This document shows positions 11,382-36,382 of a stretch of DNA of 64,000 nt, piece by piece. Source of the DNA: Methanobacteriota archaeon. GTDB lineage: Archaea > Thermoplasmatota > Poseidoniia > Poseidoniales > Poseidoniaceae. The DNA lies in NCBI GenBank assembly GCA_002722615.1, contig PBMQ01000037.1, positions 34,958 to 98,957 of the forward strand, read 5' to 3'. The position numbers and the translations under genes are program-made. The notes beneath the pieces were generated by a model. It was given only the letters and a program-made list of their open reading frames with translations, was not told the DNA's origin and ran no database searches. Each line of letters starts with the position of its first letter. Position 1 is the first letter of the stretch.

Positions 11382-14300
11382 ATGTCACTTAATCACAACC
11401 AAATGGCTTATGCTGCAATTATTTCAACGTTGATTTTTGGTTCTCTATTCGTAGGAATCAGCGGGTTCTATCAGACCTCTTCTGGTGTTGGAGATTTCGA
11501 TAGTGCTGCTGAAGAAAACATCACACCAGACTTGGAAATAAGTTCAGGAGATGCCTTAGACAGTGATTATGATGGTCTTCCAGATGTTCTTGAAACATCC
11601 CAATATGGTACTGACCCAGAAGATCCGGACACAGATAATGACGGAATGAGCGATGGTTGGGAAGTAGACCACGGCCTGAATCCGCTCGATAACGGCGAAT
11701 CTGAGGAAGCTGAAGAAGAATCCGGTTCCACAAATACTGCAGATGACGCAGAGGTAAGCAACGAAAGTGACTCTTGGCCTGATCCTACACAAGGACGATA
11801 CGGCGACCCTGATAATGATGGTTTGACTAACGAACAGGAAGCTGAACTTGGTACTGACCCTCAACGTGCAGACACTGATAATGACGGACTCAATGACCGT
11901 TGGGAGTCTATGTACACAATGAATGTCTCCTCGCCTGACGGTACAGTTATGCTCTTCAATCCACTTTCCGGTAACTGGGATTGTACGCTCCTTAACGGAC
12001 CTCTCGAACAAACACTTTCTGATCTTCTCGAAGATTTTGAAGGCGCTCCAACATGGCAAGAACTTGAGAACCCATTGGGCAAGCACTCTTGCGACCAAGT
12101 CTTGGATTTCGATGATGATGGTCTTCTAAACTTCCAAGAAGAAGCCTACGGTACTAACCCTGCATCTCCAGATTCTGATGACGATATGTTGCCTGATATT
12201 CTCGAGGTCAACAGTGCAAACAAAGTTCTTGATTTCCAACTTGGATCCAATTGCGGTGAACCTGTTATTACCCCTCCTTCCCAACGTCTTCCCACTGAAG
12301 CACCGTTTGCCGATGAAGTGAGTGCATCTTGGTTTTTGTCTGACATGGATGGCGACGGTTTCCTCAATGGTCCAAGTGACTGGGACACCGATGGAGACGG
12401 AATGCCTGATGGATTTGAGTATTGTTTCTCATTCCAAAACAATCATCCACTCAATGTTGCTAACCCACAAAAAGCGTTCTCAGAACGTTTGGACCCTTCC
12501 AACGCATCAGATGGCTACAACGATTGGGACGAAGATGGATTGAATAATCTCGAAGAATATCAGGTTGCTCTGAAATTTGGATTGACAAACGGCTTGCCAT
12601 CTTTTACATCTCCATGGACTGAAGACACTGACCAAGACGGAATGCCCGATGGTTGGGAAGCGACTCAATACAACCGCACAACTCTTGAGTATCCTCTCAA
12701 CCCAAGAAATGCTAGCAACGCCAATGAGGATATCGATTTTGATGGATGGGATTCTGACGGAGACGGTGACGTCCTCTTCAACGAACTTGAACTCACCACC
12801 ACCGTAGTCGATATTTACGTTCAAATCGGAGATTACGTGACAGCCAATTCAACCGTTGCCCGGGGACAATACACCCTTGGCGGTGGAAATAAGCAGACCG
12901 TTTACCTTGTCGCTCCGGTTGATGGGTACGTATATCATATCAATGTGGCACCTGGCGATCAAGTTGATTCTCGACTGTTTGTTTGGATGAACGTTGTCGA
13001 AGAATCTGAGAGATTCACAAATCTCATGGAATATGAAGCACGACTTGATGATAACGGTAATGCATTTGGCCGATCAACAGACCCAACTCATGGAGACACC
13101 GACCGTGATGGTCTTCTGGATGGCATTGAAGTTGGAGGATGGGAAATTCTTGTTGTCAATCGTGGTGTTCAAGTGACATGGGTCGTATCTGACCCTGGAC
13201 TTGCAGACACAGACTCCGATGGGCTATCTGATTTTCTTGAATTCTCTTCCACTTGTGATGGCCAAGGATCCAACGCCTCCAATGTTGACACCGATGGTGA
13301 TGGTGAAAGCGATCAACAAGAAGTCATGCTCGGTTATGTCTTCAACGGAGAGCAATATTTTACATCGGCTTGTATGTTTGACACCGACAACGACGGATTA
13401 GAAGACGGAGAAGAAGTCATTGCAGGCGCAGACAACTTCGTGACGCATGCAAACAATTCCGATACAGACAATGACGGTCTTATCGATGGTAATGAGATTC
13501 TCTTTATCCCTCGCCCGTTCCAATATGAAACCAATCCACTCATCAATGATACAGATGGTGATGGTATGCTTGATGGCTGGGAAATGCAAGTTAAATCTAC
13601 GGAAGACAACACGAATTCCCATTCCCTTTGGGTTGCAATTTCCAATTGGGACCGACCTGGGTGTACTGAATCTCAGACCAACAGCTGTCTGATGGAACCC
13701 GGTGGTTACGTTTGGATTAACTGGCTTGGTGGATTTGAGTTGCAAAAGAAATACGAGGTATACGAAATGAACCTGTCAGGTTTTGATATGCCCGGTAACA
13801 CATTGTGTGATGGATGTAAGGGTCGGTGGGCTCTTGATCCATCCCTCAATTCTTTGAAGGATGATACCTATGACATCGATAACGACACACTTCCAAATGG
13901 AGCAGAGGCTCCAACAAACTGGAATACAAATCCTGTTGATGATGATACTGATGGAGATTTGCTGCCTGATGGATGGGAAGTTCAATATTCCTACGAAGCA
14001 ATCAACAACAACCTTGTTGATAATTCCACTATCAGTGCATACGGGGCACGTGGTGTTATGGATCCCTCTATGGCAGACAGCGACCTTGACGGAATCGATG
14101 ATGGTCAAGAAGATCCGGACAGTGACGGCCTCAACCGTACAGGCTTGATCAAGAAATACTGCCCCGGATACAACGATTCCACCAACGCAGAATGCAACAT
14201 CGATCCTGATACCCCTGATGGCTTAAAATTCTACAATAATCTCGAAAACTACACGAATTATGAAGAGTTGCAAAATGGAACCAACCCTGTTACTAACGAC

Positions 14301-14543
14301 ACAGATGGTGACGCTTGGGAAGACGGACCTGAAGTATACTACATGGATCATGATGACGACGGAATGGCAACCGGTTGGGAGTATCACTTCGAATTCGATC
14401 CGTTTGATGGAGCAGATCGCCTCGTCGATAGCGATGGCGATGGCCATACGAACTATTGTGAATTCAAGTGGGATACAAACCCCAGAAATCCAATCAGTTT
14501 CCCTGGTCAGGGTGAACTGTGCGATCCATTCGAAGGTCAGTGA
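11382..14543 (+). CDS. Secreted/anchored giant acidic protein with many thrombospondin type-3 (TSP3) Ca-binding repeats
   Basis: N-terminal TM/signal MAYAAIISTLIFGSLFVGISGF. Dozens of DxDxDGxxDxxE repeats (DTDNDGMSDGWE, DPDNDGLTNEQE, DTDNDGLNDRWE, DSDDDMLPDILE, DTDGDGMLDGWE ...). An internal barrel-sandwich-like insert lies at about 12780..13010. Confidence 0.8.
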   Translation: MSLNHNQMAYAAIISTLIFGSLFVGISGFYQTSSGVGDFDSAAEENITPDLEISSGDALDSDYDGLPDVLETSQYGTDPEDPDTDNDGMSDGWEVDHGLNPLDNGESEEAEEESGSTNTADDAEVSNESDSWPDPTQGRYGDPDNDGLTNEQEAELGTDPQRADTDNDGLNDRWESMYTMNVSSPDGTVMLFNPLSGNWDCTLLNGPLEQTLSDLLEDFEGAPTWQELENPLGKHSCDQVLDFDDDGLLNFQEEAYGTNPASPDSDDDMLPDILEVNSANKVLDFQLGSNCGEPVITPPSQRLPTEAPFADEVSASWFLSDMDGDGFLNGPSDWDTDGDGMPDGFEYCFSFQNNHPLNVANPQKAFSERLDPSNASDGYNDWDEDGLNNLEEYQVALKFGLTNGLPSFTSPWTEDTDQDGMPDGWEATQYNRTTLEYPLNPRNASNANEDIDFDGWDSDGDGDVLFNELELTTTVVDIYVQIGDYVTANSTVARGQYTLGGGNKQTVYLVAPVDGYVYHINVAPGDQVDSRLFVWMNVVEESERFTNLMEYEARLDDNGNAFGRSTDPTHGDTDRDGLLDGIEVGGWEILVVNRGVQVTWVVSDPGLADTDSDGLSDFLEFSSTCDGQGSNASNVDTDGDGESDQQEVMLGYVFNGEQYFTSACMFDTDNDGLEDGEEVIAGADNFVTHANNSDTDNDGLIDGNEILFIPRPFQYETNPLINDTDGDGMLDGWEMQVKSTEDNTNSHSLWVAISNWDRPGCTESQTNSCLMEPGGYVWINWLGGFELQKKYEVYEMNLSGFDMPGNTLCDGCKGRWALDPSLNSLKDDTYDIDNDTLPNGAEAPTNWNTNPVDDDTDGDLLPDGWEVQYSYEAINNNLVDNSTISAYGARGVMDPSMADSDLDGIDDGQEDPDSDGLNRTGLIKKYCPGYNDSTNAECNIDPDTPDGLKFYNNLENYTNYEELQNGTNPVTNDTDGDAWEDGPEVYYMDHDDDGMATGWEYHFEFDPFDGADRLVDSDGDGHTNYCEFKWDTNPRNPISFPGQGELCDPFEGQ

Positions 14544-14546
14544 CGT

Positions 14547-16079
14547 ATGTTGAACATGACAAAAACAGCGATTTCTCTGGTTTTGTGTCTGTTAATGTCT
14601 GTCCTTCCACCAACTACCATGGCCGATGGAAATATCGAACCTGAGGCACCCAATATTGAGTTCGACCAATCTGATGGTATAGTCATGGATTCTATCATTA
14701 ATCTCACAGGAACGTCAAATGTTCCGCTTACATCGATTGAGATAAGCATCTGGAATATCTCGATGCCAGACCAGTGGTCCTTGGTAACTTCTAGTCCATT
14801 TTTGGATATCGTAGTACCCTATTCTGATTCAGAATCAGATGAAACGATGTGGTCTTGGAGTCACGATTTTCAAGTTGGTGATTTGGAATGCACTTGTTAT
14901 GTCGAAGTATCTTTGATGGAGCAAACAGATCTAATCTCCTTTGGCTTAGTCGTCTACGTTGGAGACTCCTTTCATCGCCCAGTATTGACTCCAACAAATT
15001 CATTGGAATCGATGAATATTTATTCGATGGAAATTTTCAATACTGATGCAATTGTACTTTCGTATGATGTACTGCTCCCATTACAAGAAGGATTTTCTTC
15101 ACAATCCAATACAAATATTATGCCGAACATGCGTATCTGTCCTGCACCAAACGGTATTTGTACTGAAGAATATACAGCAATACTGGTAAATTCAACATTT
15201 TCTGAGAAACTGGAATTAAGCTTCAACATGGACGAGAACAGTATATTCGATGGGTATTACCTTCTTCAAGTTCAAGTCCAAGATGAATTACTCACGTTAT
15301 CCAACAATTTCACTCAGTATGTGTTGTTTGACAAAACCGAACCAAGTGTACAACTATCTGCGGTAGAACAGGTCAATGAATCTGAATCAATTGTAGTCGA
15401 TATTGATGTTGATGATGGTTATATCGGCTCAAGTTATGACATCACTTGGAGTATAACAGAACCAGACGGATTGCCGCGTTCTGTGCTGAGTTCTGAGATT
15501 CTAGTAGACAATCGGCTCGAATTTTCACCAACAAAATCAGGCCAATATCAGGTTAATGCGCTCGTTCGAGATACGGGAGGATTCCTTGTTGCTGTCAATC
15601 ACAATGTGAATGTAACCAATATCGAACCTTCGGCATCTGTTCGTTATGATGGATTTCTTATTGAAGACGGGACAGTTGTAACCGTTGCATCATTTTCAAA
15701 TTGGTTGTTTAGTGCAAATACCTCCACAGATAGTCAGAATGATGTTGATGGTCTGGAATATTTTTGGTATGTTGATGGAAAATCCTTACTTAGCGGACAA
15801 TCTTATCTTTCTTCTTCTGATGTTCAATCTTCTTCGTTCAAAAAAATACGAGTCGAAGTGGTTGATGATGATGGTTCATCATCGAATCTATCCTTTGAAG
15901 TTGTCCAACAAGCATCAGAAAGCGAGGAATCCATGGGGAATGCTGTATTGATGTCCTTGTTGGCCATGTTCTTTATTCTCTTTGTTGCAATGGTTGTAAT
16001 GTTAAAACAGCGAGTAAAATCTGACGTCAGTTCAGGATTTGTAAAATGGACTGAACGTAGCGACGGTCCGAAGAATTGA
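14547..16079 (+). CDS. Cell-surface protein with PKD-like domain(s) and a C-terminal TM anchor
   Basis: Starts 4 nt after the TSP3 gene. Has a signal peptide (ISLVLCLLMSVLPPTTMA). A PKD-like segment (YFWYVDGKSLLSGQS...RVEVVDDDGSSSNLSFEV) is present. A C-terminal anchor (AVLMSLLAMFFILFVAMVVMLKQR) is followed by a short basic tail. Confidence 0.65.
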   Translation: MLNMTKTAISLVLCLLMSVLPPTTMADGNIEPEAPNIEFDQSDGIVMDSIINLTGTSNVPLTSIEISIWNISMPDQWSLVTSSPFLDIVVPYSDSESDETMWSWSHDFQVGDLECTCYVEVSLMEQTDLISFGLVVYVGDSFHRPVLTPTNSLESMNIYSMEIFNTDAIVLSYDVLLPLQEGFSSQSNTNIMPNMRICPAPNGICTEEYTAILVNSTFSEKLELSFNMDENSIFDGYYLLQVQVQDELLTLSNNFTQYVLFDKTEPSVQLSAVEQVNESESIVVDIDVDDGYIGSSYDITWSITEPDGLPRSVLSSEILVDNRLEFSPTKSGQYQVNALVRDTGGFLVAVNHNVNVTNIEPSASVRYDGFLIEDGTVVTVASFSNWLFSANTSTDSQNDVDGLEYFWYVDGKSLLSGQSYLSSSDVQSSSFKKIRVEVVDDDGSSSNLSFEVVQQASESEESMGNAVLMSLLAMFFILFVAMVVMLKQRVKSDVSSGFVKWTERSDGPKN

Positions 16080-16106: not shown

Positions 16107-17486
16107 TTGGTGAGCACTATGTTTGAGGAAGCTTTCAACTCGTTGCCGGATAAACCCCTGGCTATTCCAAAGGAATCTTATCGTGAGCGACAGACGCGAC
16201 TGTTGTCACAATTTGATGTAGACGATTTGGTAATAGTTTCCTCCCTCCCCGAGGCTACGCGAAGTAATGATGTTCATTATCCTTACAGATCATCCAGTGA
16301 TATGCTCTACATGTGTGGTTGGAGCGATCCCGAATCTACTTTAGTGTTCTATCATGAAGATGGTCAGTGGATTGCTCACTTGTTTGTTCAGCCCAAAGAT
16401 ACATTGATGGAAATTTGGGAGGGTCGTCGACCTGGTGTTGAAGGAGCTCTTCGTGATTGGGCAGTTGATCGTGCGAGTCCATCCCATGAATTATCTAGAC
16501 ATTTACATGAATTCCTAGAGAAAGCAGTTAGGGTTCACTTGCGGACAGGTATCAATCCTAGCATCGATTCAATTGTGGTAAGTGCGGTTGAGAAACGTGA
16601 TAGGAAGAGACAACACTTCGGAACTGGACCCATAAGTGTCGAAGATCCCAGCCGCCGAATAGCTGAAATGCGTCTGCGAAAGTCTGAGCAAGAGATTGAC
16701 CAGATGCGCTACGCTGCTGATGTTTCCTCAAAAGCACACGAACTGGCTATGGCTGCAAGCAAAGATGGAATCCATGAGTTCCAGATACAATCCATTATTG
16801 AAGGCTTTTTTGTTTACGGAGGAACCAGTGGTTGGGCATATCCATCCATCGTAGGGTGTGGTGAAAATGCTACTATTCTCCATTATACAGTCAACAATTC
16901 TCCTTGCAAATCAGATGAAATCATTCTCATCGATGCTGGTGCAGAGTATAATGGATATGCGGCTGATATTACACGTTCTTGGCCAATTGGGGGAACATTT
17001 AGCGATGCCCAAAAGGAAATTTATGAAATTGTTCTCGATGCTCAAGAGAAAGCAATTGATGCATGCCGTGTTGGAAATCCATACAACATGCCTCATGAAG
17101 TTGCATGCAAAGCTCTCGCTGAAGGTCTAATTCGATTGGGAATCATCACTCAGTCTTTGGATGAAGCGTTGGACTTCGAATCTGGCGATCTTCGTAAATG
17201 GTACATGCACAACACAGGGCATTGGCTTGGTCTCGACGTTCATGATGTTGGAACGTACAAACCCGATGGCACACCTCGACTTCTAGAAGCAGGAATGGTC
17301 CTTACCGTAGAGCCTGGATTGTATTTTGGTGCCTGGCGTCCTGACGTTGACTGTCCCGAGCGGTATGCCAACATTGGAATCAGAATTGAAGACGACGTCC
17401 TTGTAACAAATGGAGACCCTGATGTCTTGACAGATTGGTGTCCAAAAACAATTGATGATATTGAACGGATTGTTGGTTCCCTCTGA
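16107..17486 (+). CDS. pepP: Xaa-Pro aminopeptidase (M24B)
   Basis: LIDAGAEYNGYAADITRSWPIGG, HNTGHWLGLDVHDVG, LTVEPGLYF and GIRIEDDVLVT are the metal-ligand motifs of the M24B pita-bread fold. Confidence 0.85.
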   Translation: MVSTMFEEAFNSLPDKPLAIPKESYRERQTRLLSQFDVDDLVIVSSLPEATRSNDVHYPYRSSSDMLYMCGWSDPESTLVFYHEDGQWIAHLFVQPKDTLMEIWEGRRPGVEGALRDWAVDRASPSHELSRHLHEFLEKAVRVHLRTGINPSIDSIVVSAVEKRDRKRQHFGTGPISVEDPSRRIAEMRLRKSEQEIDQMRYAADVSSKAHELAMAASKDGIHEFQIQSIIEGFFVYGGTSGWAYPSIVGCGENATILHYTVNNSPCKSDEIILIDAGAEYNGYAADITRSWPIGGTFSDAQKEIYEIVLDAQEKAIDACRVGNPYNMPHEVACKALAEGLIRLGIITQSLDEALDFESGDLRKWYMHNTGHWLGLDVHDVGTYKPDGTPRLLEAGMVLTVEPGLYFGAWRPDVDCPERYANIGIRIEDDVLVTNGDPDVLTDWCPKTIDDIERIVGSL

Positions 17487-17495
17487 GGTGGCCTT

Positions 17496-18680
17496 ATGGC
17501 TTGGAATTCTATACTCCAGAGTGTTTTATCTTCTGACCGTGTTTTTCGATTATCCGTTGCCGATTGTGTAGAACTGTACAATGAAGCTCCTTTGCATCAA
17601 TTAATGGATGCGGCACATCATCGCAGACTGCAACATAATCCTAACAATGAAGTCACTTATCTTGTCGATCGTAACATCAATTACACAAATGTCTGCACAA
17701 TTAATTGTCAATTTTGTTCCTTCTATCGTCCACCTGGTCATGAGGAAACATACACACAATCGTATGATGAAATACATTCAAGAATCAAGGAACTAGAGGC
17801 GATTGGTGGTTCACGAATACTCATGCAAGGTGGAGTGAACCCTTCGCTAGATTTTGATTGGTATCTTAACCTCATTAGTGAGTTGAAGGATCAACATCCC
17901 ACAATTGACTTGGATTGTTTTTCACCCATCGAGATCGAAGGCATTGCTGAGGTAACTGAACTGACAACACAAGAAGTTCTGAGTCAACTCAAGGATGCTG
18001 GAATGCACGGACTTCCCGGCGGAGGTGCGGAGATGCTCGTCGAAACCGTACGAAAGGATGTCTCTCCCAAAAAAGGACATCCTGATAATTGGTTGCGTGT
18101 AATGAAAGAAGCACAATTGCTTGGACTAACTACCAGTGCAACCAATGTTATTGGCTTTGGAGAAACAAATTCAGACAGAGTACAACATCTTCATAGAATT
18201 CGTGAACAGCAAGATGAAATTCTCTCAAATGGACTCACTGGATTTACATCCTTTATCGCTTGGCCAGTACAGCTTGAATCCAATACATTTGGCAAGAGAA
18301 ATAGAGGACAAAATCGATTTGAGCGTGGTGCAGGATCTACGGAATATCTCAGACATGTAGCAATTTCGAGATTGTTCCTTGACAATGTCCCTCACATTCA
18401 AGCATCCTGGCCAACCATGGGAATGGGAATTGCACAAATGGCCCTTCTGGCCGGAGCAGACGATGCAGGTTCAACTATGATGGAAGAGAATGTTGTCTCT
18501 GCATCAGGTACAACAAAATTCAGTGCAACCGAATACGAATTACAACTATCAATCCGCAGGTCAGGATTCGTTCCTGTTCGAAGGGACAGTGATTACAATC
18601 AATTGGAGACCCCTAGCGCTCTTGACGATGCTCCGGAAGTAGCATGTCAGCCACCGCATCAAGCGGTTGAATTGGTATAG
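17496..18680 (+). CDS. Radical-SAM enzyme of the MqnC/MqnE family (futalosine-pathway menaquinone biosynthesis-like)
   Basis: NINYTNVCTINCQFCSFYR is a CxxxCxxC cluster in the MqnE/MqnC-type context (NINYTN...C..C.FCAFYR). The downstream GG(V)NP and TIM-barrel motifs follow. I cannot separate MqnC/MqnE from CofH from sequence alone. Confidence 0.65.
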   Translation: MAWNSILQSVLSSDRVFRLSVADCVELYNEAPLHQLMDAAHHRRLQHNPNNEVTYLVDRNINYTNVCTINCQFCSFYRPPGHEETYTQSYDEIHSRIKELEAIGGSRILMQGGVNPSLDFDWYLNLISELKDQHPTIDLDCFSPIEIEGIAEVTELTTQEVLSQLKDAGMHGLPGGGAEMLVETVRKDVSPKKGHPDNWLRVMKEAQLLGLTTSATNVIGFGETNSDRVQHLHRIREQQDEILSNGLTGFTSFIAWPVQLESNTFGKRNRGQNRFERGAGSTEYLRHVAISRLFLDNVPHIQASWPTMGMGIAQMALLAGADDAGSTMMEENVVSASGTTKFSATEYELQLSIRRSGFVPVRRDSDYNQLETPSALDDAPEVACQPPHQAVELV

Positions 18681-21600
18681 AATACTACCCAAATCTCTGC
18701 AACGATGTTGCGACCACCTTTGCTTGATTCCCCCGTTGGATTATACTCCTGACCGTTGTACAAACCTCGATACGTGAGTTCATTCGTCTGGCCGTTCATA
18801 TCAACCCATGATGTGATGTCGAGGCTCCATTGCTTGACATCTTGTCCTGCGCACCAACCTGCCCTCCCGAATGGCCATGAACCATATTGGTTGGCTACGA
18901 CGCCATTGCTCACTTCGTTTTCACAACCCGTATTTGAGTAAACAATTGGATGCCATTCATATGCATGATGAGAATCAATGTAGTAATGATGTTGATGATC
19001 ACAAAACTCAGCGCAATTTGCATCATCTTGTTGGAAACCATGACCTGTGATGGTTGCAACAATTTCAACACGGGTAGTTTCGGTTGGAACTGTGAAGTTT
19101 AGGCTCCGAACATATCGACTCTCATTATTGTATGATCCATCAAATTGACCTCCAGTGAACCCAAATTCAGCATCAAATGCACGTTCACCACTACCCCAAT
19201 TTGAGAATAAGAATTTGATTGTCATATCCCCTTTATTCGCCCCTTTATATCGAAATCTTCGTTCTTGGTCATCATCTAACATGAACAGATACGGGCTGAT
19301 GTCTGTGAGCCACCTACCTTCACGGCCATAGGTTGTAATCCATCGCATGAATTCAGTTCCACAAGAGGAAGAATTGTCGTCATCACAAATGTAGAGGTGT
19401 GCCAGATAATCCCATTCATGGCATCCGCCGTAACTTCCATCACTTTTCTGATAGCGATTCTTTCTCTCGTCGCAAGCATGTTCGTGGAATACTTCGAGTG
19501 TATCGTAGGAACTCAAATTATCTGGTAACGTAAATGTAGCATTCCGGTAGGAATTGTGATTCGCACCCCAGCCACCTGCATGTCGTTCAAAATCATACAA
19601 GGTAACGACATCTATCCCAGGATCTTGCATTCGAATTTCAGGTTCAAATTCAGCATTCCATTGATGTGGCTCGTAGGTGTAATGGAATGGATCATTTGTT
19701 TGTGAGATCCATGCGTATATCGAACCAGTATCTCTTGCACGTTGAAACCGATCAATACCCATAAAGAATGGGCTATTGAAATTTGAAATCATTTCACCAA
19801 GTCCTCCTTGAATATTACTTGCATCCATGTCAATATAGTGGATACGTCCATCCCATTTTTCTTCCTCGCTGGGATTTAATTTCGATTCGACATCACTCTT
19901 TCGAGAGAGTACATCACTGTGATACGTTGAATCAAAGGAACCATAAAAGAGATGAGTATTTTCTGGTAAATTACGAATAAATGTCCCTGGATTTGTTGCC
20001 CAAGTTCCTGAATTCGAGTTTCCACTGCTATCGGTATACTTGAACATGAAAAGATATACATCGGTTCCAGTCCACCTGTTCTGGAACGTAAAGGTACCAT
20101 CAAGTGTGGGTACTGTAAATGTCGGAACCACATCCATCGGCCCATTCACAGAAGCCCCAGGAGCCCACTGAACTGGTTTTTGAACAATCGCACAACCATC
20201 TGAATCGATTGTCCAATGTGTTGGACTGTCTGCACAAATATCGACATTTGCGAATACTCCATCACCATCAAGATCAGCACAGCCAGCAGTATTCACTTGT
20301 AGCCCGGTAGGTGTTCCTTCACATTGATCAATTAAGTCATTGACTCCATCTGCATCGGAATCACGTTCAATCGCGGCACAACCGAATTCATCCACATCCG
20401 TAGCTCCTAGGGGTGTTTTGGGACATAAGTCCAAAGTTGCACCTGTTGCATTAACGTCGTCGACGTTATCGTTATCGTCATCAGCATCTTCAGTGGAATC
20501 AAAGCAACCATCCATATCAAAATCAGTCATTTCATTACGGTCTATCATCCAATTTGAACGACCCTTTGGGCAAAGGTCTGATGTATCAAGTTCTCCATCA
20601 TTATCATCATCATCATCTTCGAGTAAATCATTGCAACCGTCTTGATCCCAATCGTTGTATAGGTTTGCTGGCCAATTAATCTCACCATCGTAACATGCAT
20701 CATTGACGTCGAGAATACCGTCTCCATCATCATCAGAATCTTCAGTTACATCATTGCATCCATCACGATCGCGATCGTTTTCTGCAGTACTTATCCATCC
20801 AATGGTCGATGTGCATCCATCCTCGAAATCCAATATACCATCATTGTCATCATCGAGATCCTCGTCGTAGTCCCTACATCCATCTTGATCAGCATCACTG
20901 GCACTACTTGATGCCCAACCATCATTCTCCCCCAGACCACTTGGACAGTTGTCGAACTGGTCATCGATTCCATCTCCGTCAGCGTCATTATTCACTTCGA
21001 TAAGAATCGTTGTGTTGCGAAACTCCTCCAATGTCGAGAATACTCCACACTTTGCTTCAGCATGAACCATGAATGATTCAGTACGCAAATCCAATTCAGA
21101 AAGGATAAACGAAAAGGATCCGTCATCTTGCAATGACATCGCAAAAGTATCCATAGACGCACCCTCGCCGGGGATTGTCAGAACAACGTTACATGATTCA
21201 ATAGACTGATGCAGGACTTGTCCTTGAAAGACCATCACGGAGGATTCTGCAACGAGATATTGTGGTATAATGAGAGAGATGCCCCCTTCATCTGGAACAG
21301 GGACCTCAACTGAATTGGTCATGACAATCGAATCTCCTTCTGATGGTGTAATTGTTATCTCAAAATTGTATTCTCCTGGCGAATCTGGCAATAAAACGAC
21401 AGAGATGTATGTTGGCTTCTTGTTTACAGACCAACTACTCGCATCGATACTTTGGCCTTCTCTTGTAACGAGAGTCTCAATTTCATAACTCCCTTCGCCT
21501 GTCGTTACGAGAAGAATTGCCAACTCTGAGATTTCGTCGATTTCTCCTATTATTGCTTCTTCATTCCATGAAGCTTGGATGCTGTAAGGTACAGGAGCAC

Positions 21601-21700
21601 TCACTTCTTCTTCATCAGTGTCGTTAGAATCTCCACTTCCAAAACATCCAGACAACATCAACAGGGAAAGGAATACAGCAACGAATGGACTCTTCGTCAT
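18659..21700 (-). CDS. Secreted lipoprotein-like protein: TSP3 Ca-binding repeats followed by a peptide-N-glycosidase F (PNGase F)-like two-domain module
   Basis: Signal plus Cys (LSLLMLSGCFGSG). The TSP3 block is DDDNDGILDFEDGC / DRDRDGCNDVTEDSDDDGDGILDVNDAC. The C-terminal ~330 aa align to the PNGase F landmarks (motif strings in the PNGase F finding). Confidence 0.75.
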   Translation of the reverse strand: MTKSPFVAVFLSLLMLSGCFGSGDSNDTDEEEVSAPVPYSIQASWNEEAIIGEIDEISELAILLVTTGEGSYEIETLVTREGQSIDASSWSVNKKPTYISVVLLPDSPGEYNFEITITPSEGDSIVMTNSVEVPVPDEGGISLIIPQYLVAESSVMVFQGQVLHQSIESCNVVLTIPGEGASMDTFAMSLQDDGSFSFILSELDLRTESFMVHAEAKCGVFSTLEEFRNTTILIEVNNDADGDGIDDQFDNCPSGLGENDGWASSSASDADQDGCRDYDEDLDDDNDGILDFEDGCTSTIGWISTAENDRDRDGCNDVTEDSDDDGDGILDVNDACYDGEINWPANLYNDWDQDGCNDLLEDDDDDNDGELDTSDLCPKGRSNWMIDRNEMTDFDMDGCFDSTEDADDDNDNVDDVNATGATLDLCPKTPLGATDVDEFGCAAIERDSDADGVNDLIDQCEGTPTGLQVNTAGCADLDGDGVFANVDICADSPTHWTIDSDGCAIVQKPVQWAPGASVNGPMDVVPTFTVPTLDGTFTFQNRWTGTDVYLFMFKYTDSSGNSNSGTWATNPGTFIRNLPENTHLFYGSFDSTYHSDVLSRKSDVESKLNPSEEEKWDGRIHYIDMDASNIQGGLGEMISNFNSPFFMGIDRFQRARDTGSIYAWISQTNDPFHYTYEPHQWNAEFEPEIRMQDPGIDVVTLYDFERHAGGWGANHNSYRNATFTLPDNLSSYDTLEVFHEHACDERKNRYQKSDGSYGGCHEWDYLAHLYICDDDNSSSCGTEFMRWITTYGREGRWLTDISPYLFMLDDDQERRFRYKGANKGDMTIKFLFSNWGSGERAFDAEFGFTGGQFDGSYNNESRYVRSLNFTVPTETTRVEIVATITGHGFQQDDANCAEFCDHQHHYYIDSHHAYEWHPIVYSNTGCENEVSNGVVANQYGSWPFGRAGWCAGQDVKQWSLDITSWVDMNGQTNELTYRGLYNGQEYNPTGESSKGGRNIVAEIWVVFYTNSTA

Positions 21701-21729: not shown

Positions 21730-22863
21730 CTAACGTTTGCCAATATAGAATTGTTCAGTCCTCGGATCGTTGAGAATTTGATTTTGAAGATTAACATTCA
21801 CGTCTGCAAAATCAACCTTAATTGGACATACCCATAAGAGTGGCATCTTATTTTCACGTTTAATTTTCAGTATAAATTCCCAATGAATCCTATGCAGGGG
21901 TGAATTCATTGTACCTGGCCACAATTGATCGGGCGGGTCAATTACAAAGCTTCCATCATCTGATATTGTCGAATGACCTCCTTCGCCAGAGAATCTCATT
22001 GGACGCAGGAAAACACCTCCTTGAATGTCTTTCCTTTCAATGGGAGAATCTTCACCGCCCGCTGTTCCATCATCTAAACCTGATTCCCAGTGGTGAGGCA
22101 ATGGAGTTGAAAGGCCAATAGGAGGTTGTGAATCTTCTGTAGATTGAGACAGTTCGATTAGAGACTCCCTAGACGGAGGTAACGTACCAACTTGCCAATG
22201 GACGGACATCGATTTCCAATCAGGTCGATTTGATGGGAATTGTATAGATCCAGTTAGTGGTTCTCCACTTACAATCGATGGACTGAATTTAACGATTGGT
22301 TGGTTTATTGATTCTCTGAAAAAATCTTGTTGCCGTTTTAGATCAATGAAATTAGCAACAATACGCAATACGATAGGAATCATCAATATTGGTACAACAA
22401 TGAGGCTGAGTATTGGATAATCAAGCAACCCAATCTGCATACTTTTTGTCCCAAAACTTGGAAGACCTAGTTCGCTTAAGAGTGGTTCTATAAACAAATA
22501 CACAAGAGTTGACAAGAGTAAAATTACTGCTATGTTGATCATATTTCGTGCATGTCCATGGAGTTGGTTTGGCAAAATATACCAGCCTCTCCGTTGTTCT
22601 TTTATCAGTTGAACAAATGGGCGAGAATCTTTACGCTTATCCGTTGGGTCTGACCATTCATCACCATCTTCATTAACGATTAGTCGTTGAATTAACCACC
22701 CTTCTTCGCTTTCAATCCGGTATGGTGGTAACCGGTTTTTGATATCAGATTTGTTTAGATTTTTTTCTAAGATCTTTTCCGATATAGGTGCAGCTTCAGG
22801 ATTGATTCGGCGGTCATCGAATGGTGGGTAACGCACGCGATGAAGAATCGACCATTTACCCAT
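21730..22863 (-). CDS. Hypothetical membrane protein
   Basis: 377 aa. Two or three central TM helices (MINIAVILLLSTLVYLFIEPLL, LSLIVVPILMIPIVLRIV). No recognisable motif. Confidence 0.45.
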   Translation of the reverse strand: MGKWSILHRVRYPPFDDRRINPEAAPISEKILEKNLNKSDIKNRLPPYRIESEEGWLIQRLIVNEDGDEWSDPTDKRKDSRPFVQLIKEQRRGWYILPNQLHGHARNMINIAVILLLSTLVYLFIEPLLSELGLPSFGTKSMQIGLLDYPILSLIVVPILMIPIVLRIVANFIDLKRQQDFFRESINQPIVKFSPSIVSGEPLTGSIQFPSNRPDWKSMSVHWQVGTLPPSRESLIELSQSTEDSQPPIGLSTPLPHHWESGLDDGTAGGEDSPIERKDIQGGVFLRPMRFSGEGGHSTISDDGSFVIDPPDQLWPGTMNSPLHRIHWEFILKIKRENKMPLLWVCPIKVDFADVNVNLQNQILNDPRTEQFYIGKR

Positions 22864-31899: not shown

Positions 31900-33009
31900 A
31901 TGGTCCGACAACAACGGAAGTTCAAGCCACGGGCAAGAACTTCTCGTCCATTGAATCTCGATTCAATTGGCGCTCGTGATTCACAAAAAATTCAACCTCC
32001 TATCGAGGATGGAATGTTTTGGAGAATACAACCCCCTCTTGCAACACGTTTGTACGAAAAGAGTGCTCTGGGTTATCGGAATGAGGACGGTTCCATTCGA
32101 TTAACAGCATCGGAAGTTTTGTTCTGCCATTGGCATCGTCATTTACCACTTCCAAGTGAGACTTGGCTTGAAAATGAACTTCAAAAGAATCCAAGACTCA
32201 TTTATGAGGCTATTATAATGGACGTCGGTCGAAACGGTGGCGAGATGATTGTTCCTACTGTGCATCGTCCTTCGAATCTTCAGATTGCTTGGGGCGTGCG
32301 GTGGCATCGTGATCGAAATCATTTGAAAGACAAGTATCAGGCCTCGGTTACTACTGCAACAACTCATGATGAACTTGATTGGCTTGCTTTGTTGGAATGG
32401 TGCAGAAAATGCATTGATTTTGAACTCGATTCGGAGTTGTTTGTCATTGATGATGAACTGGATGTTACCATGTACAAACTTGATTTGATTGAGCCCAAGG
32501 GAAACCTACTGTCATGGGAACAACTTGGAGAACATCACCAAGATGACTTTCTCAATTATTGGAACAAAAGGACATTGACAGAATCTGGAAGCTATGTTCG
32601 TGTTAATCAACCATGGCAATGGGATCAAATCGGAATAGATCACATGTCAGGTCGGGTCCTTCGCCATGAAGAGGATACATATGTGCAGCACATGATTACA
32701 CAAGAGGTTGAATCTTCCTCAGACTCAAAACTCATGCATGATTTACTGTCACGTGGATTGCTCTTGCGTCCAGGATTCAAGTACGGTTGTAGATGGAGAG
32801 TCTATGATGGGGATTTGAACAATTCACACGCTCCATGGTTGATTCAACCACGATTGGAAGCAGCGACTACATGGGAAGGTGTCTGTCTGAGTGTTCGTTT
32901 GGCGGAAGGGGTCCACAAGCAGTGGGTTTGCGCGATATATGATACTGGAAATTGGAATTATTTACGCATTCAGAGATGGTCGCCAGGTAGGAATACATCA
33001 ACTGAATAG
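31900..33009 (+). CDS. endA: tRNA-intron (splicing) endonuclease, long two-unit archaeal form
   Basis: The C-terminal catalytic unit LLSRGLLLRPGFKYGCRWRVYDGDLNNSHAPWLIQP matches the EndA motif G..V..G.K(F/Y)G.D(F/W).VY....HS.(Y/W)L(V/I). An N-terminal degenerate unit (ASEVLFCHW...) plus the ~370-aa length suggests the alpha2-type. The true start may be MFWRIQPP (~32014). Confidence 0.75.
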   Translation: MVRQQRKFKPRARTSRPLNLDSIGARDSQKIQPPIEDGMFWRIQPPLATRLYEKSALGYRNEDGSIRLTASEVLFCHWHRHLPLPSETWLENELQKNPRLIYEAIIMDVGRNGGEMIVPTVHRPSNLQIAWGVRWHRDRNHLKDKYQASVTTATTHDELDWLALLEWCRKCIDFELDSELFVIDDELDVTMYKLDLIEPKGNLLSWEQLGEHHQDDFLNYWNKRTLTESGSYVRVNQPWQWDQIGIDHMSGRVLRHEEDTYVQHMITQEVESSSDSKLMHDLLSRGLLLRPGFKYGCRWRVYDGDLNNSHAPWLIQPRLEAATTWEGVCLSVRLAEGVHKQWVCAIYDTGNWNYLRIQRWSPGRNTSTE

Positions 33010-35042
33010 TCATCTCTTTCTTCTGCTTGTTTGACGCTACTTTTCTTACTAAAGTAAGATGATGCAAACCATGCAGCAAATAATATGAAAAAGGTTGAAA
33101 GTACAAGAGATTGATTTCCAACCAATGGATTTGAATTACTGCTCTGTGCCTTTAGTTCGACTTTGATATCCCATTGTTCACCATTGAATGTCTGAAGATG
33201 AATGGTTCCTAAGACATACATATTTTCTTGCAACAATCCTTGCGGGTCGATTTCGATAAGAATAGTACCGTTTCCGTTTTCGACTTCGACTGATGATGGG
33301 GTTGTTGCAACACGTGAGAGAGGGCCATCAATATCGATAGAAAATTCCCCATTTCCATCACCTAACCCCGCATATGGTAAACGAATTGTTGTAGGTTCAA
33401 CAACGTTGATGTTTGATAGCAATTTCATTTCAGAGGGTAATGGTATCGAACCCAAGGTGGTTACTGAGGTCTTGATATCAAAAGCATCATCATCACAATA
33501 GATGAATCCTGAAAACGTTGCAGTTGAATCCAACGCCCCTTGGGAGCTGAATGTACCAAAGTGAGTGGAATCAGGCGTGCTTGAATTTGAGAATACAATT
33601 GTTCTTCCATCAGATCCAGTGAGGTCACCCCAACATTGAACAAGATTATTCCCAGGTGAGATTTCCAATGATAAGGGCTCGTCTTGGAGAAGTGTTGATC
33701 CAAAATCCTCTAAGTCGATTTTATGTTTTGGCGAACAATTAATTGAATGGAATTCAACAATCCATTTATTATTGGATTCTACAATTTTAGCGTACCAAGG
33801 GACAAGAACTCCATCATGGTCACGAATCTGGATTCCTCGTTCACCAAACTCATCTCCTGGTTGAAACAAATCACTTGCCACACCGTCGTTAATTCCTCTG
33901 AGTTGTTCTTGGTTTCCATCGGCTTCAATAGTTTTCAGATATGGGCGTCGTTGATCGATGTTCATGGCATTGTGAGCAGTGTCTCCTGCTGCTAAATCTT
34001 CCAATAAAACAAGAACACCATCTCCTGGTAAGGATTCATCGTAACCTTCTTGAGTTCGTAATTCAATCCAAACAAATTCATTTTTGTCTATTTGGATTCG
34101 TATGCGATCACCACCTGCAAACCTGGATTCGAGTGGAATTGAAGGACCTATGCATGGTCCTTGAGAATTATCTGGCCATTCTAAGATAACATCGCGAGTA
34201 GGTCCATGTCCAATGGCATTCATAGTCGGTCCTGTTGGAAGGGATGGCGTATCTCCCCCACCGTTCCAATTTCCACTTGCCATGATGTCCCACACTCCGA
34301 TTCCTTTCCATGAACCAGTATATCCTGAATCATGAACTGGATAAAGGTCGAAAGCACCAAATTGATGCATCATTTCATGCAGAATTGTTCCAAATCCATT
34401 ACTCCCATGACGCATTGATGACATGGTGTAATGTTCAAATGAGACATCTGCTTTTTTTATGGGTTCAATAAACGAAGTGAAATGAGACCATATTCGATTC
34501 GAAGATCCGCCTCCTTGTTCCTGTGCGATAGTGGAATGAAGGATGAGGAAGCGATCTACGACTCCATCATCGTTCAAATCATACGACTGAAGATTTTCTT
34601 CGTTCATTGATTCAACTACAAATTCAGCAAGCAGAGCAGGAAGAAATTGACCTCCATCCCCATAATCTCTACCATTTGAACCATCTGCCCCATAGGCTGA
34701 AAGCCCTTTAGGTGCACGAAGAATTCTATCGTGTACTGAAATATCAATTGAAACTTGTTGGCCTGTGGCCTGGCTGAAATAATCCTCTGAGTGCTGCTTT
34801 AGTTCATCTTGGGTATCGGAAATTGCATTAGTTGTAAGAGGGTTTGAATCAAAATCAACCAATACAACAAGCCACGATTCATTCTGTTGCAATCCTACGA
34901 GTGGTGCTGGATTGTCTTGATTGGTATTGTCTTCAAGTTGAAAGAGCTCATTGATTTGATCTGAATAGAGATGAGACAAGAGAGCCAAGGTGATGCACAG
35001 CACCATCCCTATCGCTTGAATCCTTTTCCCCATACTTATCAC
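32970..35042 (-). CDS. Secreted M6-family (immune-inhibitor-A-like) zinc metallopeptidase with a C-terminal TM anchor
   Basis: Signal peptide (IQAIGMVLCITLALLSHLYS). GTILHEMMHQFGAFDLYP (HExxH...DLY) and GVWDIMASGNWNGG are M6/InhA signatures. C-terminal anchor LVLSTFFILFAAWFASSYFSKK. Confidence 0.7.
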   Translation of the reverse strand: MISMGKRIQAIGMVLCITLALLSHLYSDQINELFQLEDNTNQDNPAPLVGLQQNESWLVVLVDFDSNPLTTNAISDTQDELKQHSEDYFSQATGQQVSIDISVHDRILRAPKGLSAYGADGSNGRDYGDGGQFLPALLAEFVVESMNEENLQSYDLNDDGVVDRFLILHSTIAQEQGGGSSNRIWSHFTSFIEPIKKADVSFEHYTMSSMRHGSNGFGTILHEMMHQFGAFDLYPVHDSGYTGSWKGIGVWDIMASGNWNGGGDTPSLPTGPTMNAIGHGPTRDVILEWPDNSQGPCIGPSIPLESRFAGGDRIRIQIDKNEFVWIELRTQEGYDESLPGDGVLVLLEDLAAGDTAHNAMNIDQRRPYLKTIEADGNQEQLRGINDGVASDLFQPGDEFGERGIQIRDHDGVLVPWYAKIVESNNKWIVEFHSINCSPKHKIDLEDFGSTLLQDEPLSLEISPGNNLVQCWGDLTGSDGRTIVFSNSSTPDSTHFGTFSSQGALDSTATFSGFIYCDDDAFDIKTSVTTLGSIPLPSEMKLLSNINVVEPTTIRLPYAGLGDGNGEFSIDIDGPLSRVATTPSSVEVENGNGTILIEIDPQGLLQENMYVLGTIHLQTFNGEQWDIKVELKAQSSNSNPLVGNQSLVLSTFFILFAAWFASSYFSKKSSVKQAEERDDYSVDVFLPGDHL

Positions 35043-35083: not shown

Positions 35084-36382
35084 TTAATTGTGTATAGTTT
35101 TGAAGGAGTTAATTTCATTTTCTCGCCAATCCGTTGTTAGTATTCGGACCACATTTTCTCGCAGTTCAGGTAAATGTGGTTCATGAACGAATTGGAATGA
35201 TTGAATCCCTGAATGTTGATATCGTTTTGAACACTCTTTGAACCGTTGATTTGATGACCATGGGTTGGTCATGTTTGCAATTTGAATGTTCATTTCAATT
35301 TGTAATGTGGGATTCGTTGCAGGTACAGCACCTTGCAATTCAAGTAAATTAAGCCCCCTCATTTTGCAGCGACCGGATTGAATAGAATTCTGAAATGAGG
35401 CCGGTAGGGGGGTTGAGTCACAACCTCCAATAATCACATCAGTCAGTCGATATCGTGCTACTGTGTCAATCAAATGTTCTCGCTCATCGATGTTTGAACA
35501 CAATGATTCGTACCGCAATAAACCAGTATTTTCAGGAGATGTATCAATAGGGTAAGCCACGCCTTGGCATGAGCAATCAACATAGGTGACGAGTCGTCGT
35601 CTTCCTTCATGATCGAAAATGGCTTTCGGATTCATGATTTCCATTGCACGACATACACTTTTGCTGATTGTGAACTCCAAGAATAAAACCATGATTGTGA
35701 GCAGTACAATATTAGTTCCATTCCATCGACCAGGGAGAGAAAGAAGGAGGATTACACCCCCTATTCCAAGAATTCGAACTCTCCACCAGTCTTGATTATT
35801 CTCAGTGATCAGTCCTAATGAACCAGCGATAATGGTTCCGAATGCTAACATGTAGGTCATTAGAAGAGCCCAGAAAACAGATAATGCAAACGTGAAGAGT
35901 GTGATAGCATCATATTGAGATGTCAAACCAGCATCATTATGTATTCTGTCACCAAAGTCATAGAGTGATGGAATAAAGAAATAAAACAACGCAAAAAGTA
36001 AGCCATAGGCAAGTGTTAAAGAAGTCATCATCCACCTTTTCATGACGGTCTGTTCGCTTTGAGTTAGTCCGGGTTTCGCAAACGAGTACATCGAGAAGAG
36101 TGCAAATGGAAGTATGCATAAGATGGAAAGCATGACTGCGCTTAACCACCTTACAACACTCCACGAAGCTGGTTCATACAATGTAAGGCATGATACTGTA
36201 TTACAAGGGTTCAGATGGTTCAACATCATCTCGAGGATTGAGTCGATCTTGTTCATTATTGCAATCGTAAGAATCGCAACAAGGACAAAACCAAGAGTCG
36301 CCCTTTGAGTAAGGTAGTCAAAGTGGTGTTGCACTGGTTGTACTGAATCGGATTCAAGGTGAAGTCCCATGGCAGATGTCAA
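35084..36382 (-). CDS. Polytopic membrane protein (6-7 TM, weakly TatC-like) with a Cys-containing cytoplasmic C-terminal domain
   Basis: The first ~260 aa contain the hydrophobic helices ATLGFVLVAILTIAIM, LSAVMLSILCILPFALF, LTLAYGLLFALFYFFIPSLY and LFTFALSVFWALLMTYMLAFG, after an HHFDYLTQR lead-in. TatC assignment is tentative. The C-terminal 170 aa has CSCQG...C...GGCDS...C motifs. Confidence 0.35.
   Translation of the reverse strand: MTSAMGLHLESDSVQPVQHHFDYLTQRATLGFVLVAILTIAIMNKIDSILEMMLNHLNPCNTVSCLTLYEPASWSVVRWLSAVMLSILCILPFALFSMYSFAKPGLTQSEQTVMKRWMMTSLTLAYGLLFALFYFFIPSLYDFGDRIHNDAGLTSQYDAITLFTFALSVFWALLMTYMLAFGTIIAGSLGLITENNQDWWRVRILGIGGVILLLSLPGRWNGTNIVLLTIMVLFLEFTISKSVCRAMEIMNPKAIFDHEGRRRLVTYVDCSCQGVAYPIDTSPENTGLLRYESLCSNIDEREHLIDTVARYRLTDVIIGGCDSTPLPASFQNSIQSGRCKMRGLNLLELQGAVPATNPTLQIEMNIQIANMTNPWSSNQRFKECSKRYQHSGIQSFQFVHEPHLPELRENVVRILTTDWRENEINSFKTIHN

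Follow-up and report, generated by a model that had tools for sequence, protein, structure and literature searches.

Whether marine planktonic archaea can remove N-linked glycans from proteins, and from whose proteins they would do so, is the question raised by one gene in a 64,000-nucleotide stretch of Poseidoniales DNA (the whole of which is called the window below). Judging from its sequence and modelled fold, the product of this gene (Table 1) should be a membrane-tethered enzyme that cuts N-linked sugar chains off proteins. We consider it probable, though well short of certain, that this product is a peptide:N-glycanase (PNGase) of the PNGase F/Ngly2 family, held on the cell surface by a lipid anchor, that it is core and vertically inherited in Poseidoniales, and that it would strip glycans from exogenous glycoproteins. 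The mature protein has a computed mass of ~110 kDa and a pI of ~4.05.

Table 1. Positions in the window of the gene and of the features of its product
Feature	Position	Strand	Details
Complete CDS	18659..21700	-	1013 aa + TGA stop
Signal peptide and lipobox	21644..21700	-	aa 1-19, MTKSPFVAVFLSLLMLSGC; Cys19 is the predicted lipidated +1 residue
Acidic low-complexity linker after lipobox	21584..21643	-	aa 20-39; from composition; low pLDDT in model
Ig-like beta-sandwich domain 1	21302..21583	-	aa ~40-133
Ig-like beta-sandwich domain 2	20999..21277	-	aa ~142-234; invariant Cys170/Cys218 pair
TSP3-type Ca-binding repeat region (putative)	20186..20995	-	aa 236-505; ~7 units; from motif scan
Thioredoxin-like (peroxiredoxin-fold) domain, Cys-free	19631..20185	-	aa 506-690; long linker helix ~aa 671-690 at end
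PNGase N-terminal jelly roll	19181..19630	-	aa 691-840; C743-C760, C772-C780, W763, catalytic D764, Y791
PNGase C-terminal jelly roll	18662..19180	-	aa 841-1013; H887, C896-C900, catalytic E898, C926-C950, R946, W949; Pfam PF09113
Asp764 codon	19409..19411	-	PNGase F Asp60, Ngly2 Asp421
Glu898 codon	19007..19009	-	PNGase F Glu206, Ngly2 Glu555
Arg946 codon	18863..18865	-	PNGase F Arg248

The original prediction placed a PNGase F-like N-glycanase module in this protein, and the module is indeed there: Pfam N-glycanase_C (PF09113) matches aa 858-992 at 72.6 bits (75.0 on the isolated region; cutoff 25), and the catalytic residues are conserved. The profile search proposed for both PNGase F domains was borne out for the C-terminal one, whereas N-glycanase_N (PF09112) has no significant Pfam match in the protein. 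The predicted fold shows the paired eight-stranded antiparallel beta jelly rolls, with a cleft between them, that characterise the PNGase F family. Equivalents of Asp60, Glu206 and Arg248, on which the prediction had been staked, are present as D764, E898 and R946 and, like the surrounding CAEFC/GRAGWC framework, are invariant in all 80 archaeal and bacterial homologs. In zebrafish Ngly2, either D421A or E555A abolishes activity (PMC12753239). The invariant pairs C743/C760, C896/C900 and C926/C950 align to C51-C56, C204-C208 and C231-C252 of PNGase F, and this homology suggests that they form the same disulfides.

PNGase F, which the prediction took as its reference, is not the nearest characterised relative; that is zebrafish Ngly2, an acid PNGase (PDB 9lwg; Honda et al., J Biol Chem 2025, PMC12753239), which has the same arrangement of thioredoxin-like (Tx-like) and PNGase domains and on which the predicted archaeal head superposes at 2.1 Å over 452 residues. 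As is typical of Ngly2, the Tx-like domain lacks CxxC, and a helix connects it with the PNGase domain; it also holds an invariant GID-R motif (D650, R656, G659). This domain, common to Ngly2, had gone unrecognised in the first reading of the sequence. In Ngly2 a protease-associated (PA) domain is inserted in the Tx-like domain and lines one side of the substrate cleft, whereas in the archaeal protein the Tx-like region is continuous (185 aa), no PA domain is matched in Pfam, and the profile alignment skips from Ngly2 residue ~202 to ~342, a segment for which there is no counterpart. Moreover, Ngly2, an animal enzyme, is soluble and lysosomal and lacks the Ig-like pair and the TSP3 stalk, whereas the archaeal protein has both and is predicted to be a surface lipoprotein in seawater.

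Other relatives are more distant or differently built. The PNGase F enzymes of Elizabethkingia meningoseptica (1PNG/1PNF/1PGS) and E. miricola (3PMS) are only ~19-23% identical, and PNGase F is a stand-alone soluble enzyme of 314 aa without Tx-like, Ig-like or TSP3 modules. PNGase F-II (4R4X), the Bacteroides PNGase F-like proteins (3KS7, 4QHB), the plant/insect-glycan PNGase 7ZGN and PNGase Bb (9VLA) have 9-16% identity and other accessory domains; none of them belongs to the subfamily of the archaeal protein. A closer match is found in bacterial lipoproteins named 'peptide-N-glycosidase F-related protein' (Myxococcota, Vulgatibacter, Sandaracinus and others), which are 30-38% identical over 92-100% of aa 506-1013 and share the Tx-like and PNGase head, the invariant residues and the short W120 loop. 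Most of them have a lipoprotein-type signal peptide; however, they are 550-700 aa long, contain no DxDxDG motifs or at most 1-3, and lack the Ig-like pair. A rough NJ tree places the archaeal clade inside the diversity of these bacterial proteins, for which no characterised member was found in the searchable literature.

The distribution of the gene agrees with the marine planktonic archaeal host that had been proposed: the best 80 genome loci are all from Poseidoniales, at 59-93% identity, and relatives occur in at least 517 species-level genome stretches. Within Poseidoniales, the abundant and uncultured Marine Group II (MGII) archaea of the ocean, the gene is core and passed on vertically. 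Orthologs from ~60 Poseidoniales loci are 993-1057 aa long, and the synteny around the gene is that of a whole block collinear with housekeeping genes. Genomic context reveals no functional link in the archaeal loci, and the neighbours of three bacterial homologs are unrelated. PepP (16107-17486), which had been counted among the secreted hydrolases of the window, lacks a signal peptide and is a cytoplasmic protein.

Both the lipobox-like LSGC signal and the fusion of the N-glycanase module to TSP3-type repeats stand up to comparison, each being kept in ~60 complete orthologs. L16-S17-G18-C19 fits the pattern [LVI][ASTVI][GAS]C taken from PMC12462473, in which lipobox lipoproteins are established for archaea, and is preceded by an n-region that includes Lys and by a hydrophobic core of 12 residues. 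All 68 full-length orthologs keep Cys19, and the majority of orthologs from the ~60 loci have L[SA]GC. In Haloferax, lipidation of the +1 Cys depends on AliA/AliB; lipidation of Cys19 in the archaeal PNGase protein is suggested by its signal sequence. The two Ig-like domains (aa 40-234), which the first reading had also passed over, are the fastest-evolving part of the protein, with a mean identity of 23% in the ortholog alignment.

The upstream block of TSP3 (DxDxDG) repeats is likewise real. A motif scan finds 11 DxDxDG motifs and 14 Cys in regular spacing; four units of ~41 aa show DxDxDGCxD...DDDNDGxxDxxDxC, and the three units nearest the C-terminus are similar to the bacterial form DxDxDGVxDxxDxC..TPxG..V...GC. 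All Cys of the region are invariant in 68 orthologs (mean identity 62%), and motifs alternating with regularly spaced invariant cysteines are likewise found in the type-3 repeats of thrombospondin/COMP. Pfam TSP_3 (PF02412) scores 15.5-19.3 bits on the archaeal protein, under the cutoff of 25, and reaches 26.5-33.1 bits in five of six orthologous regions that are 51-81% identical to this copy. The region has partial NCBIfam matches to the TSP3 regions of MtsC and the PA1041 anchor and no match to Pfam TSP3_bac; it is modelled as coil (pLDDT 52-79), and no DNA-level tandem repeat was found in it. These motifs point to Ca2+ binding. Compared with bacterial and archaeal TSP3 surface proteins, the repeats differ in falling below the Pfam threshold in this copy and in bearing an enzyme head.

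From these parts, the following mode of action may be proposed. The preprotein would leave through Sec, and the lipidated Cys19 would become the N-terminus and anchor the protein to the outer membrane face. The two variable Ig-like domains and the disulfide-stapled, Ca2+-loaded TSP3 region (~270 aa) might form a stalk that distances the catalytic head from the membrane. In the head, the Cys-free Tx-like domain is predicted to pack on the two-jelly-roll PNGase domain, as in zebrafish Ngly2; it mediates dimerisation in Ngly2 and could do so here. Within the cleft, Asp764 and Glu898, together with Arg946, Tyr791, Trp763 and Trp949, would cleave the amide bond that links Asn to the reducing-end sugar by hydrolysis, and the invariance of the catalytic residues suggests that the intact glycan is released and Asn converted to Asp, as by PNGase F and Ngly2. 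Glycan shields would then be stripped from exogenous (algal or other eukaryotic) glycoproteins, which would open these to proteolysis and uptake. MGII genomes encode many extracellular peptidases and peptide transporters and few glycoside hydrolases (GHs), and it is for this reason that deshielding of exogenous glycoproteins appears the most likely role. Ngly2 has a pH optimum of 3.5 and is inactive above pH 6 (PMC12753239), whereas the archaeal enzyme would face seawater at ~pH 8, which counts against this role.

What the enzyme would recognise is less clear from its glycan subsite. The chitobiose-contacting Trp59, Tyr85 and Trp251 of PNGase F are conserved as W763, Y791 and W949. However, R61 is replaced by Tyr765 (Y in 53 and R in 20 of the 80 homologs), W191 by H887 (His in 80/80) and E118 by K819, at a variable position, and the loop carrying PNGase F W120 or Ngly2 W480 is absent from all 80 homologs, that is, from the whole prokaryotic family. 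H887 is equivalent to Ngly2 His546, whereas Tyr765 stands at the position of His422; the two histidines are the proposed basis of the acid optimum of Ngly2 (PMC12753239). Because several contact positions are changed, a chitobiose-core substrate is not assured. The protein might be an N-glycanase for archaeal-type N-glycans, acting on its own S-layer or surface glycoproteins (turnover, remodelling) or on competing archaea or viruses, with the subsite (Y765, H887, K819, no W120/W480 loop) adapted to a linking sugar or core other than eukaryotic GlcNAc2. Tethering on the cell's own surface would suit this role, as would a core syntenic location amid housekeeping genes rather than in a nutrient-acquisition island and the rapid evolution of the membrane-proximal Ig-like domains, expected if they co-evolve with a variable cell envelope. 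Yet the same altered subsite occurs in homologs from Myxococcota and other bacteria, which are not known to carry archaeal-type N-glycans, and the long outward stalk is better suited to external substrates; we regard this role as rather unlikely.

That the released glycan itself is the nutrient, the enzyme opening a pathway of N-glycan foraging comparable to that served by PNGases and ENGases of gut and marine Bacteroidota, seems quite unlikely. Bacterial PNGase-family enzymes do serve such foraging, a Bifidobacterium PNGaseA reported in a preprint being one example, and MGIIa have kept a galactose permease subunit and some GHs that act on algal oligosaccharides (PMC6336850). However, very few GHs are reported in MGII genomes (MGIIb have none and North Sea MGIIa only GH1; PMC6864105), mannosidase or hexosaminidase is mentioned in neither of these two papers, and no glycan-utilisation genes flank the PNGase gene in the archaea or the three bacteria examined.

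TSP3-repeat genes are widespread in Poseidoniales and have been read as adhesion proteins (PMC6461757), and a second TSP3 protein, related to the CglD/MtsD adhesins, is encoded 4 kb away in the same window. The PNGase fold might accordingly be a lectin head on a TSP3 stalk, attaching cells to algae or particles and catalysing little or nothing; PNGase F mutants that have lost catalysis can serve as glycan-binding reagents. This is very unlikely, since a pure lectin would need none of the residues D764, E898 and R946 or the CAEFC/GRAGWC framework, which are nonetheless retained throughout the homologs. Adhesion and catalysis are compatible in one protein. Least probable of all is an amidase that reuses the PNGase machinery on a cell-envelope amide, on free glycosylasparagines or on other N-acyl-glycosylamines: the glycan subsite has diverged, and in the searchable literature PF09113 is mentioned only in the Ngly2 paper and no biochemistry of a prokaryotic Tx-like and PNGase protein was found, but the cleft fold and domain arrangement match Ngly2, whose cleft accommodates a linear glycopeptide (PMC12753239), and the aromatic and acidic residues near the scissile amide are conserved.

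A surface-displayed N-glycanase would bear on how MGII obtain their substrates. Access to these has so far been inferred chiefly from peptidase inventories; a conserved enzyme of this kind would add a concrete step, the removal of glycan shields ahead of proteolysis, and give MGII a part in turning over glycoproteins from algae and other eukaryotes. As the repeats carry an enzyme head, the adhesion-only reading of MGII 'thrombospondin genes' (Rinke et al. 2019) misses this protein, and at least one gene so counted would probably be an enzyme carrier. Within the PNGase F family, the Ngly2 branch, defined only recently, would come to include a large prokaryotic subfamily, and an enzyme from a cold, high-salt, Ca-rich setting at pH 8 with a different subsite could serve as a glycoanalytical reagent. 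More speculatively, and with a low probability in our estimation, this could be the first archaeal PNGase, encoded by a core gene of those planktonic archaea that are most abundant in the surface ocean, a Ca-stalk-tethered and Ngly2-like enzyme with a remodelled subsite (Tyr/His/Lys for Arg61/Trp191/Glu118, no Trp120 loop); it may work at seawater pH and recognise a non-GlcNAc2 core, for example in N-glycans of archaea, algae or viruses. In that case, the turnover of oceanic glycoprotein (high-molecular-weight dissolved organic nitrogen) would have an overlooked gateway step in deglycosylation at the cell surface, a PNGase tool with new specificity would be at hand, and the prokaryotic stock that gave rise to animal Ngly2 would be identified. 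No description of a PNGase from MGII or any archaeon was found in the searchable literature, and the protein would be the first; the enzyme family is known, and its archaeal, Ca-repeat-tethered form is not previously described there. Family membership as such is not new to databases, because some homologs from Poseidoniales already bear the name 'peptide-N-glycosidase F-related protein' from the NCBI pipeline.

The protein encoded by the candidate lipoprotein N-glycanase gene (the PNGase protein) ends in a catalytic head that comprises a domain that is thioredoxin-like (Tx-like domain, aa 506-690) and a PNGase domain of two jelly rolls (aa 691-1013). The peptide landmarks from which the original prediction derived a PNGase F-like module are all present (aa 758-773, 788-806, 884-909 and 940-955) and are collinear with the cited PNGase F segments in the HMMER alignment. 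The Pfam models expected to match gave a divided result: PF09113 (N-glycanase_C) matches aa 858-992 with 72.6 bits (gathering cutoff, 25; E 3.8e-20), whereas PF09112, the N-terminal model, has no match anywhere on the protein. Thus, to recognise the N-terminal half of the PNGase domain, one needs pairwise or profile alignments, or its fold. In a phmmer search of all PDB sequences, the PNGase F chains 1pnf/1png, 1pgs and 3pms were matched at E ~1e-7, with an alignment spanning PNGase F residues 5 to ~265, i.e., both domains. Membership in the family, which like the fold is strongly supported, was therefore correctly predicted, but PNGase F is not the nearest characterised relative, as the top solved-structure match is 9lwg ('Si:dkey-256h2.1', E 1.4e-49). 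This entry represents Ngly2 of zebrafish, the animal acid PNGase that had long been sought and was reported in 2025; its orthologs occur 'even in some bacteria' (PMC12753239). In annotations by the NCBI pipeline, the name 'peptide-N-glycosidase F-related protein' is already given to some homologs from Poseidoniales and Myxococcota, and the catalytic module as such is known.

For the comparison of active sites, residues were mapped through HMMER alignments once it had been verified how PNGase F is numbered and that Ngly2 has a 25-residue offset (the numbering in PMC12753239 equals the 9lwg chain number minus 25, e.g., D421 is chain residue 446). The equivalents of Asp60, Glu206 and Arg248 of PNGase F, on which the original prediction had been made to depend, are D764 (Ngly2 D421), E898 (Ngly2 E555) and R946. 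Together with W763, Y791 and W949 (PNGase F Trp59, Tyr85 and Trp251), they are invariant in 80 of 80 archaeal and bacterial homologs, as are eight cysteines, the counterparts of the three PNGase F disulfides and of one extra pair common to Ngly2. In Ngly2, D421A and E555A each abolish activity (PMC12753239). Judging from these alignments, amidase chemistry is strongly supported, and the protein would work like PNGase F and Ngly2, with which it shares the predicted fold and disulfides, the catalytic residues and the PF09113 match; it differs from the PNGase F family in lacking the PF09112 match and from Ngly2 in lacking the PA insertion. As a side observation, Ngly2 W420, H422 and H546 align with PNGase F W59, R61 and W191, a pairing unlike the wording of PMC12753239.

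By the same alignments, the glycan subsite appears not to be conserved and to differ from that of PNGase F. Tyr765 occupies the position of Arg61 (of the 80 homologs, 53 have Tyr and 20 have Arg), His887 that of Trp191 (His in all 80, as in Ngly2 His546) and Lys819, which is variable, that of Glu118, and the loop bearing PNGase F Trp120 and Ngly2 Trp480 is deleted throughout the prokaryotic family. PNGase F is active at neutral to alkaline pH. Ngly2 works best at pH 3.5, its activity being lost above pH 6, and its Trp480 is functionally important (PMC12753239); the PNGase protein has one of the two 'acid' histidines of Ngly2. Within the head, the motif FMGIDRFQRARDTGS includes D650, R656 and G659, which are invariant in all 80 homologs and of which only D650 and G659 are common to Ngly2; this motif may serve interdomain packing or form part of a peptide-binding cleft.

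The original prediction of a lipobox, TSP3 repeats and a PNGase module holds for the layout of the protein, although the Tx-like domain and an Ig-like pair had been missed. The LSGC lipobox was indeed found at aa 16-19, and aa 1-19 follow the classic lipoprotein signal peptide pattern with Cys19 at +1; the export signal is strongly supported. In Euryarchaeota, lipoproteins with a lipobox are now established, as are AliA/AliB, the enzymes of their biogenesis (PMC12462473). A second AF2 model, which covers aa 20-510, contains two domains of beta-sandwich type, modelled with confidence (aa ~40-133 and ~142-234, pLDDT 80-93), that resemble generic tandem Ig-like domains, followed by an Asp-rich region modelled as coil (pLDDT 52-79) without secondary structure, as may be expected for a Ca-dependent TSP3 'wire' modelled without Ca2+. 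This block (aa 239-481; 26% Asp, 14 Cys) contains 11 DxDxDG motifs. Its repeats are of two kinds: four are ~41-aa units (DxDxDGCxD…DDDNDGxxDxxDxC), and the other three are shorter and of bacterial type (DxDxDGVxDxxDxC…TPxG…GC); no tandem repeat was detected in this region at the DNA level. Although Pfam TSP_3 remains below its cutoff of 25 on the PNGase protein itself (15.5-19.3 bits), five of six orthologous regions exceed it (26.5-33.1 bits), and the predicted TSP3 assignment thus holds by orthology.

Features of the candidate PNGase gene and its neighbours
Feature	Position	Strand	Description
PNGase protein CDS	18659-21700	-	single long ORF, 1013 aa, ATG start, TGA stop
Ig-like domains 1 and 2 of PNGase protein	21302-21583; 20999-21277	-	membrane-proximal pair
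Motif FMGIDRFQRARDTGS of PNGase protein	about 19721-19765	-	aa 646-660, at end of Tx-like domain
TSP3 surface protein	11382-14543	+	1053 aa; 24 DxDxDG; Pfam TSP3_bac 84 bits
510-aa protein	14547-16079	+	signal peptide
PepP	16107-17486		no signal peptide
Radical SAM gene	17496-18680		MqnC/CofH-like
377-aa ORF	21730-22863	-	directly upstream of PNGase gene, same strand, 29-nt gap to start codon
M6 (immune inhibitor A-like) metallopeptidase and TatC homolog	32970-35042 and 35084-36382	both -
1172-aa protein	48184-51702	-	signal peptide; Ig-like repeat families NPCBM_assoc, CARDB, FixG_C, fn3_5

When one genome was scanned for each GTDB species, at least 517 genome stretches proved to encode a relative of the PNGase protein, and the best 80 of them are all from Poseidoniales MAGs/SAGs, mostly Poseidoniaceae (MGIIa), with 59-93% identity, which places the organism of the window in this order. 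Approximately 60 complete orthologs (993-1057 aa) agree with the PNGase protein in signal peptide and lipobox; they bear 11-16 DxDxDG motifs, and CHEWDY and ITGHG also recur in them. Remoter Poseidoniales/Thalassarchaeaceae homologs (44-46% identity) likewise bear DxDxDG repeats, whereas bacterial homologs are lipoproteins of 550-700 aa (30-38% identity) that lack such repeats, bearing at most 1-3 DxDxDG motifs. Among 68 full-length proteins (the PNGase protein as reference and 67 orthologs derived from the loci), all 25 cysteines are invariant, including lipobox Cys19, and mean identity to the reference is 62% for TSP3, 65% for the Tx-like domain and 70-71% for the PNGase domain; purifying selection is strongly supported. 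The Ig-like pair (23%) evolves approximately three times faster than the rest, yet retains Cys170/Cys218, which could mean that constraints on a spacer are relaxed or that the cell envelope is under diversifying selection, e.g., from viruses.

In 58-72 of the best 80 loci, the flanking genes keep a collinear order, namely topoisomerase I, geranylgeranyl-reductase-like gene, 377-aa ORF and PNGase gene, followed by the convergent MqnC/CofH-type radical SAM gene, PepP, the 510-aa ORF and the TSP3_bac protein, and the GC content of the PNGase gene equals that of its flanks. It is a core gene, vertically inherited in Poseidoniales. In a rough NJ tree without support values, the Poseidoniales proteins (MGIIa and more divergent MGIIb-like forms) form one clade nested among bacterial lipoproteins (Myxococcota and others), which suggests a single ancient transfer from bacteria to archaea and a later fusion with the Ig-like and TSP3 modules. 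Zebrafish Ngly2, 30-42% identical to members of the prokaryotic set, lies outside it in this tree, which likewise suggests that animal Ngly2 arose from prokaryotes.

In the proposed mechanism, the protein would be exported by Sec and lipidated at Cys19, and the Ig-like pair, together with a TSP3 region that is Ca-loaded and disulfide-stapled, would serve as a stalk presenting the head beyond the cell envelope. As in Ngly2, dimerisation may occur through the Tx-like domain, and D764 and E898 would hydrolyse the Asn–glycan amide. In MGII genomes, extracellular peptidases and transporters for peptides are numerous and glycoside hydrolases very few (PMC6336850, PMC6864105). Because of this balance, and of the M6 metallopeptidase in the window, the enzyme probably strips glycans so that exogenous glycoproteins are exposed to proteolysis. 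The enzyme is unlikely to act on archaeal-type glycans, whether of its own cell's envelope or of competitors' envelopes, and glycan foraging, set against so few glycoside hydrolases, is less likely still. A lectin or adhesin is very improbable given the invariant catalytic residues, and an amidase with a non-glycoprotein substrate is marginally more improbable. Gene neighbourhoods in the archaeal loci and three bacteria do not discriminate among any of these roles. Nothing established would be overturned; rather, a concrete and cheaply testable hypothesis is obtained on the handling of glycoproteins by the dominant planktonic archaea of the ocean, and with it a candidate for a PNGase that has new properties. 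A literature search of incomplete coverage found no paper on a PNGase in MGII or any archaeon and none characterising the prokaryotic Tx-like+PNGase subfamily. What appears new in this candidate PNGase is the way it is built (from the lipobox through two Ig-like domains, a TSP3 stalk and the Tx-like domain to the PNGase domain), its occurrence in another domain of life, the Archaea, and the putatively altered glycan subsite.

Of the two neighbours originally regarded as secreted hydrolases, PepP lacks a signal peptide and is not one, whereas the M6 metallopeptidase, which has an N-terminal hydrophobic segment and lies immediately downstream of the TatC homolog, is the window's genuine secreted-peptidase candidate. 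The 377-aa ORF, without any Pfam or NCBIfam match, has mid-protein hydrophobic helices, adjoins the PNGase gene in 68 of 80 loci (32-75% identity) and may encode a co-transcribed membrane partner. On the other side, the 3' ends of the radical SAM and PNGase genes overlap by 22 nt (18659-18680), leaving no space for a terminator between them. The 510-aa protein, for which no family match was obtained, is syntenic in 64 of 80 loci yet very fast-evolving (22-60% identity); it is another lineage-specific secreted protein. The 1053-aa protein, a second TSP3 surface protein whose gene lies 4 kb away from that of the PNGase protein and is collinear with it in 60 of the best 80 Poseidoniales loci, has partial matches to the myxobacterial adhesins CglD and MtsD and probably represents the class counted by Rinke et al. 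as 'thrombospondin genes', i.e., adhesion factors, of Poseidoniales (PMC6461757). The 1172-aa protein is a candidate S-layer or large surface protein.
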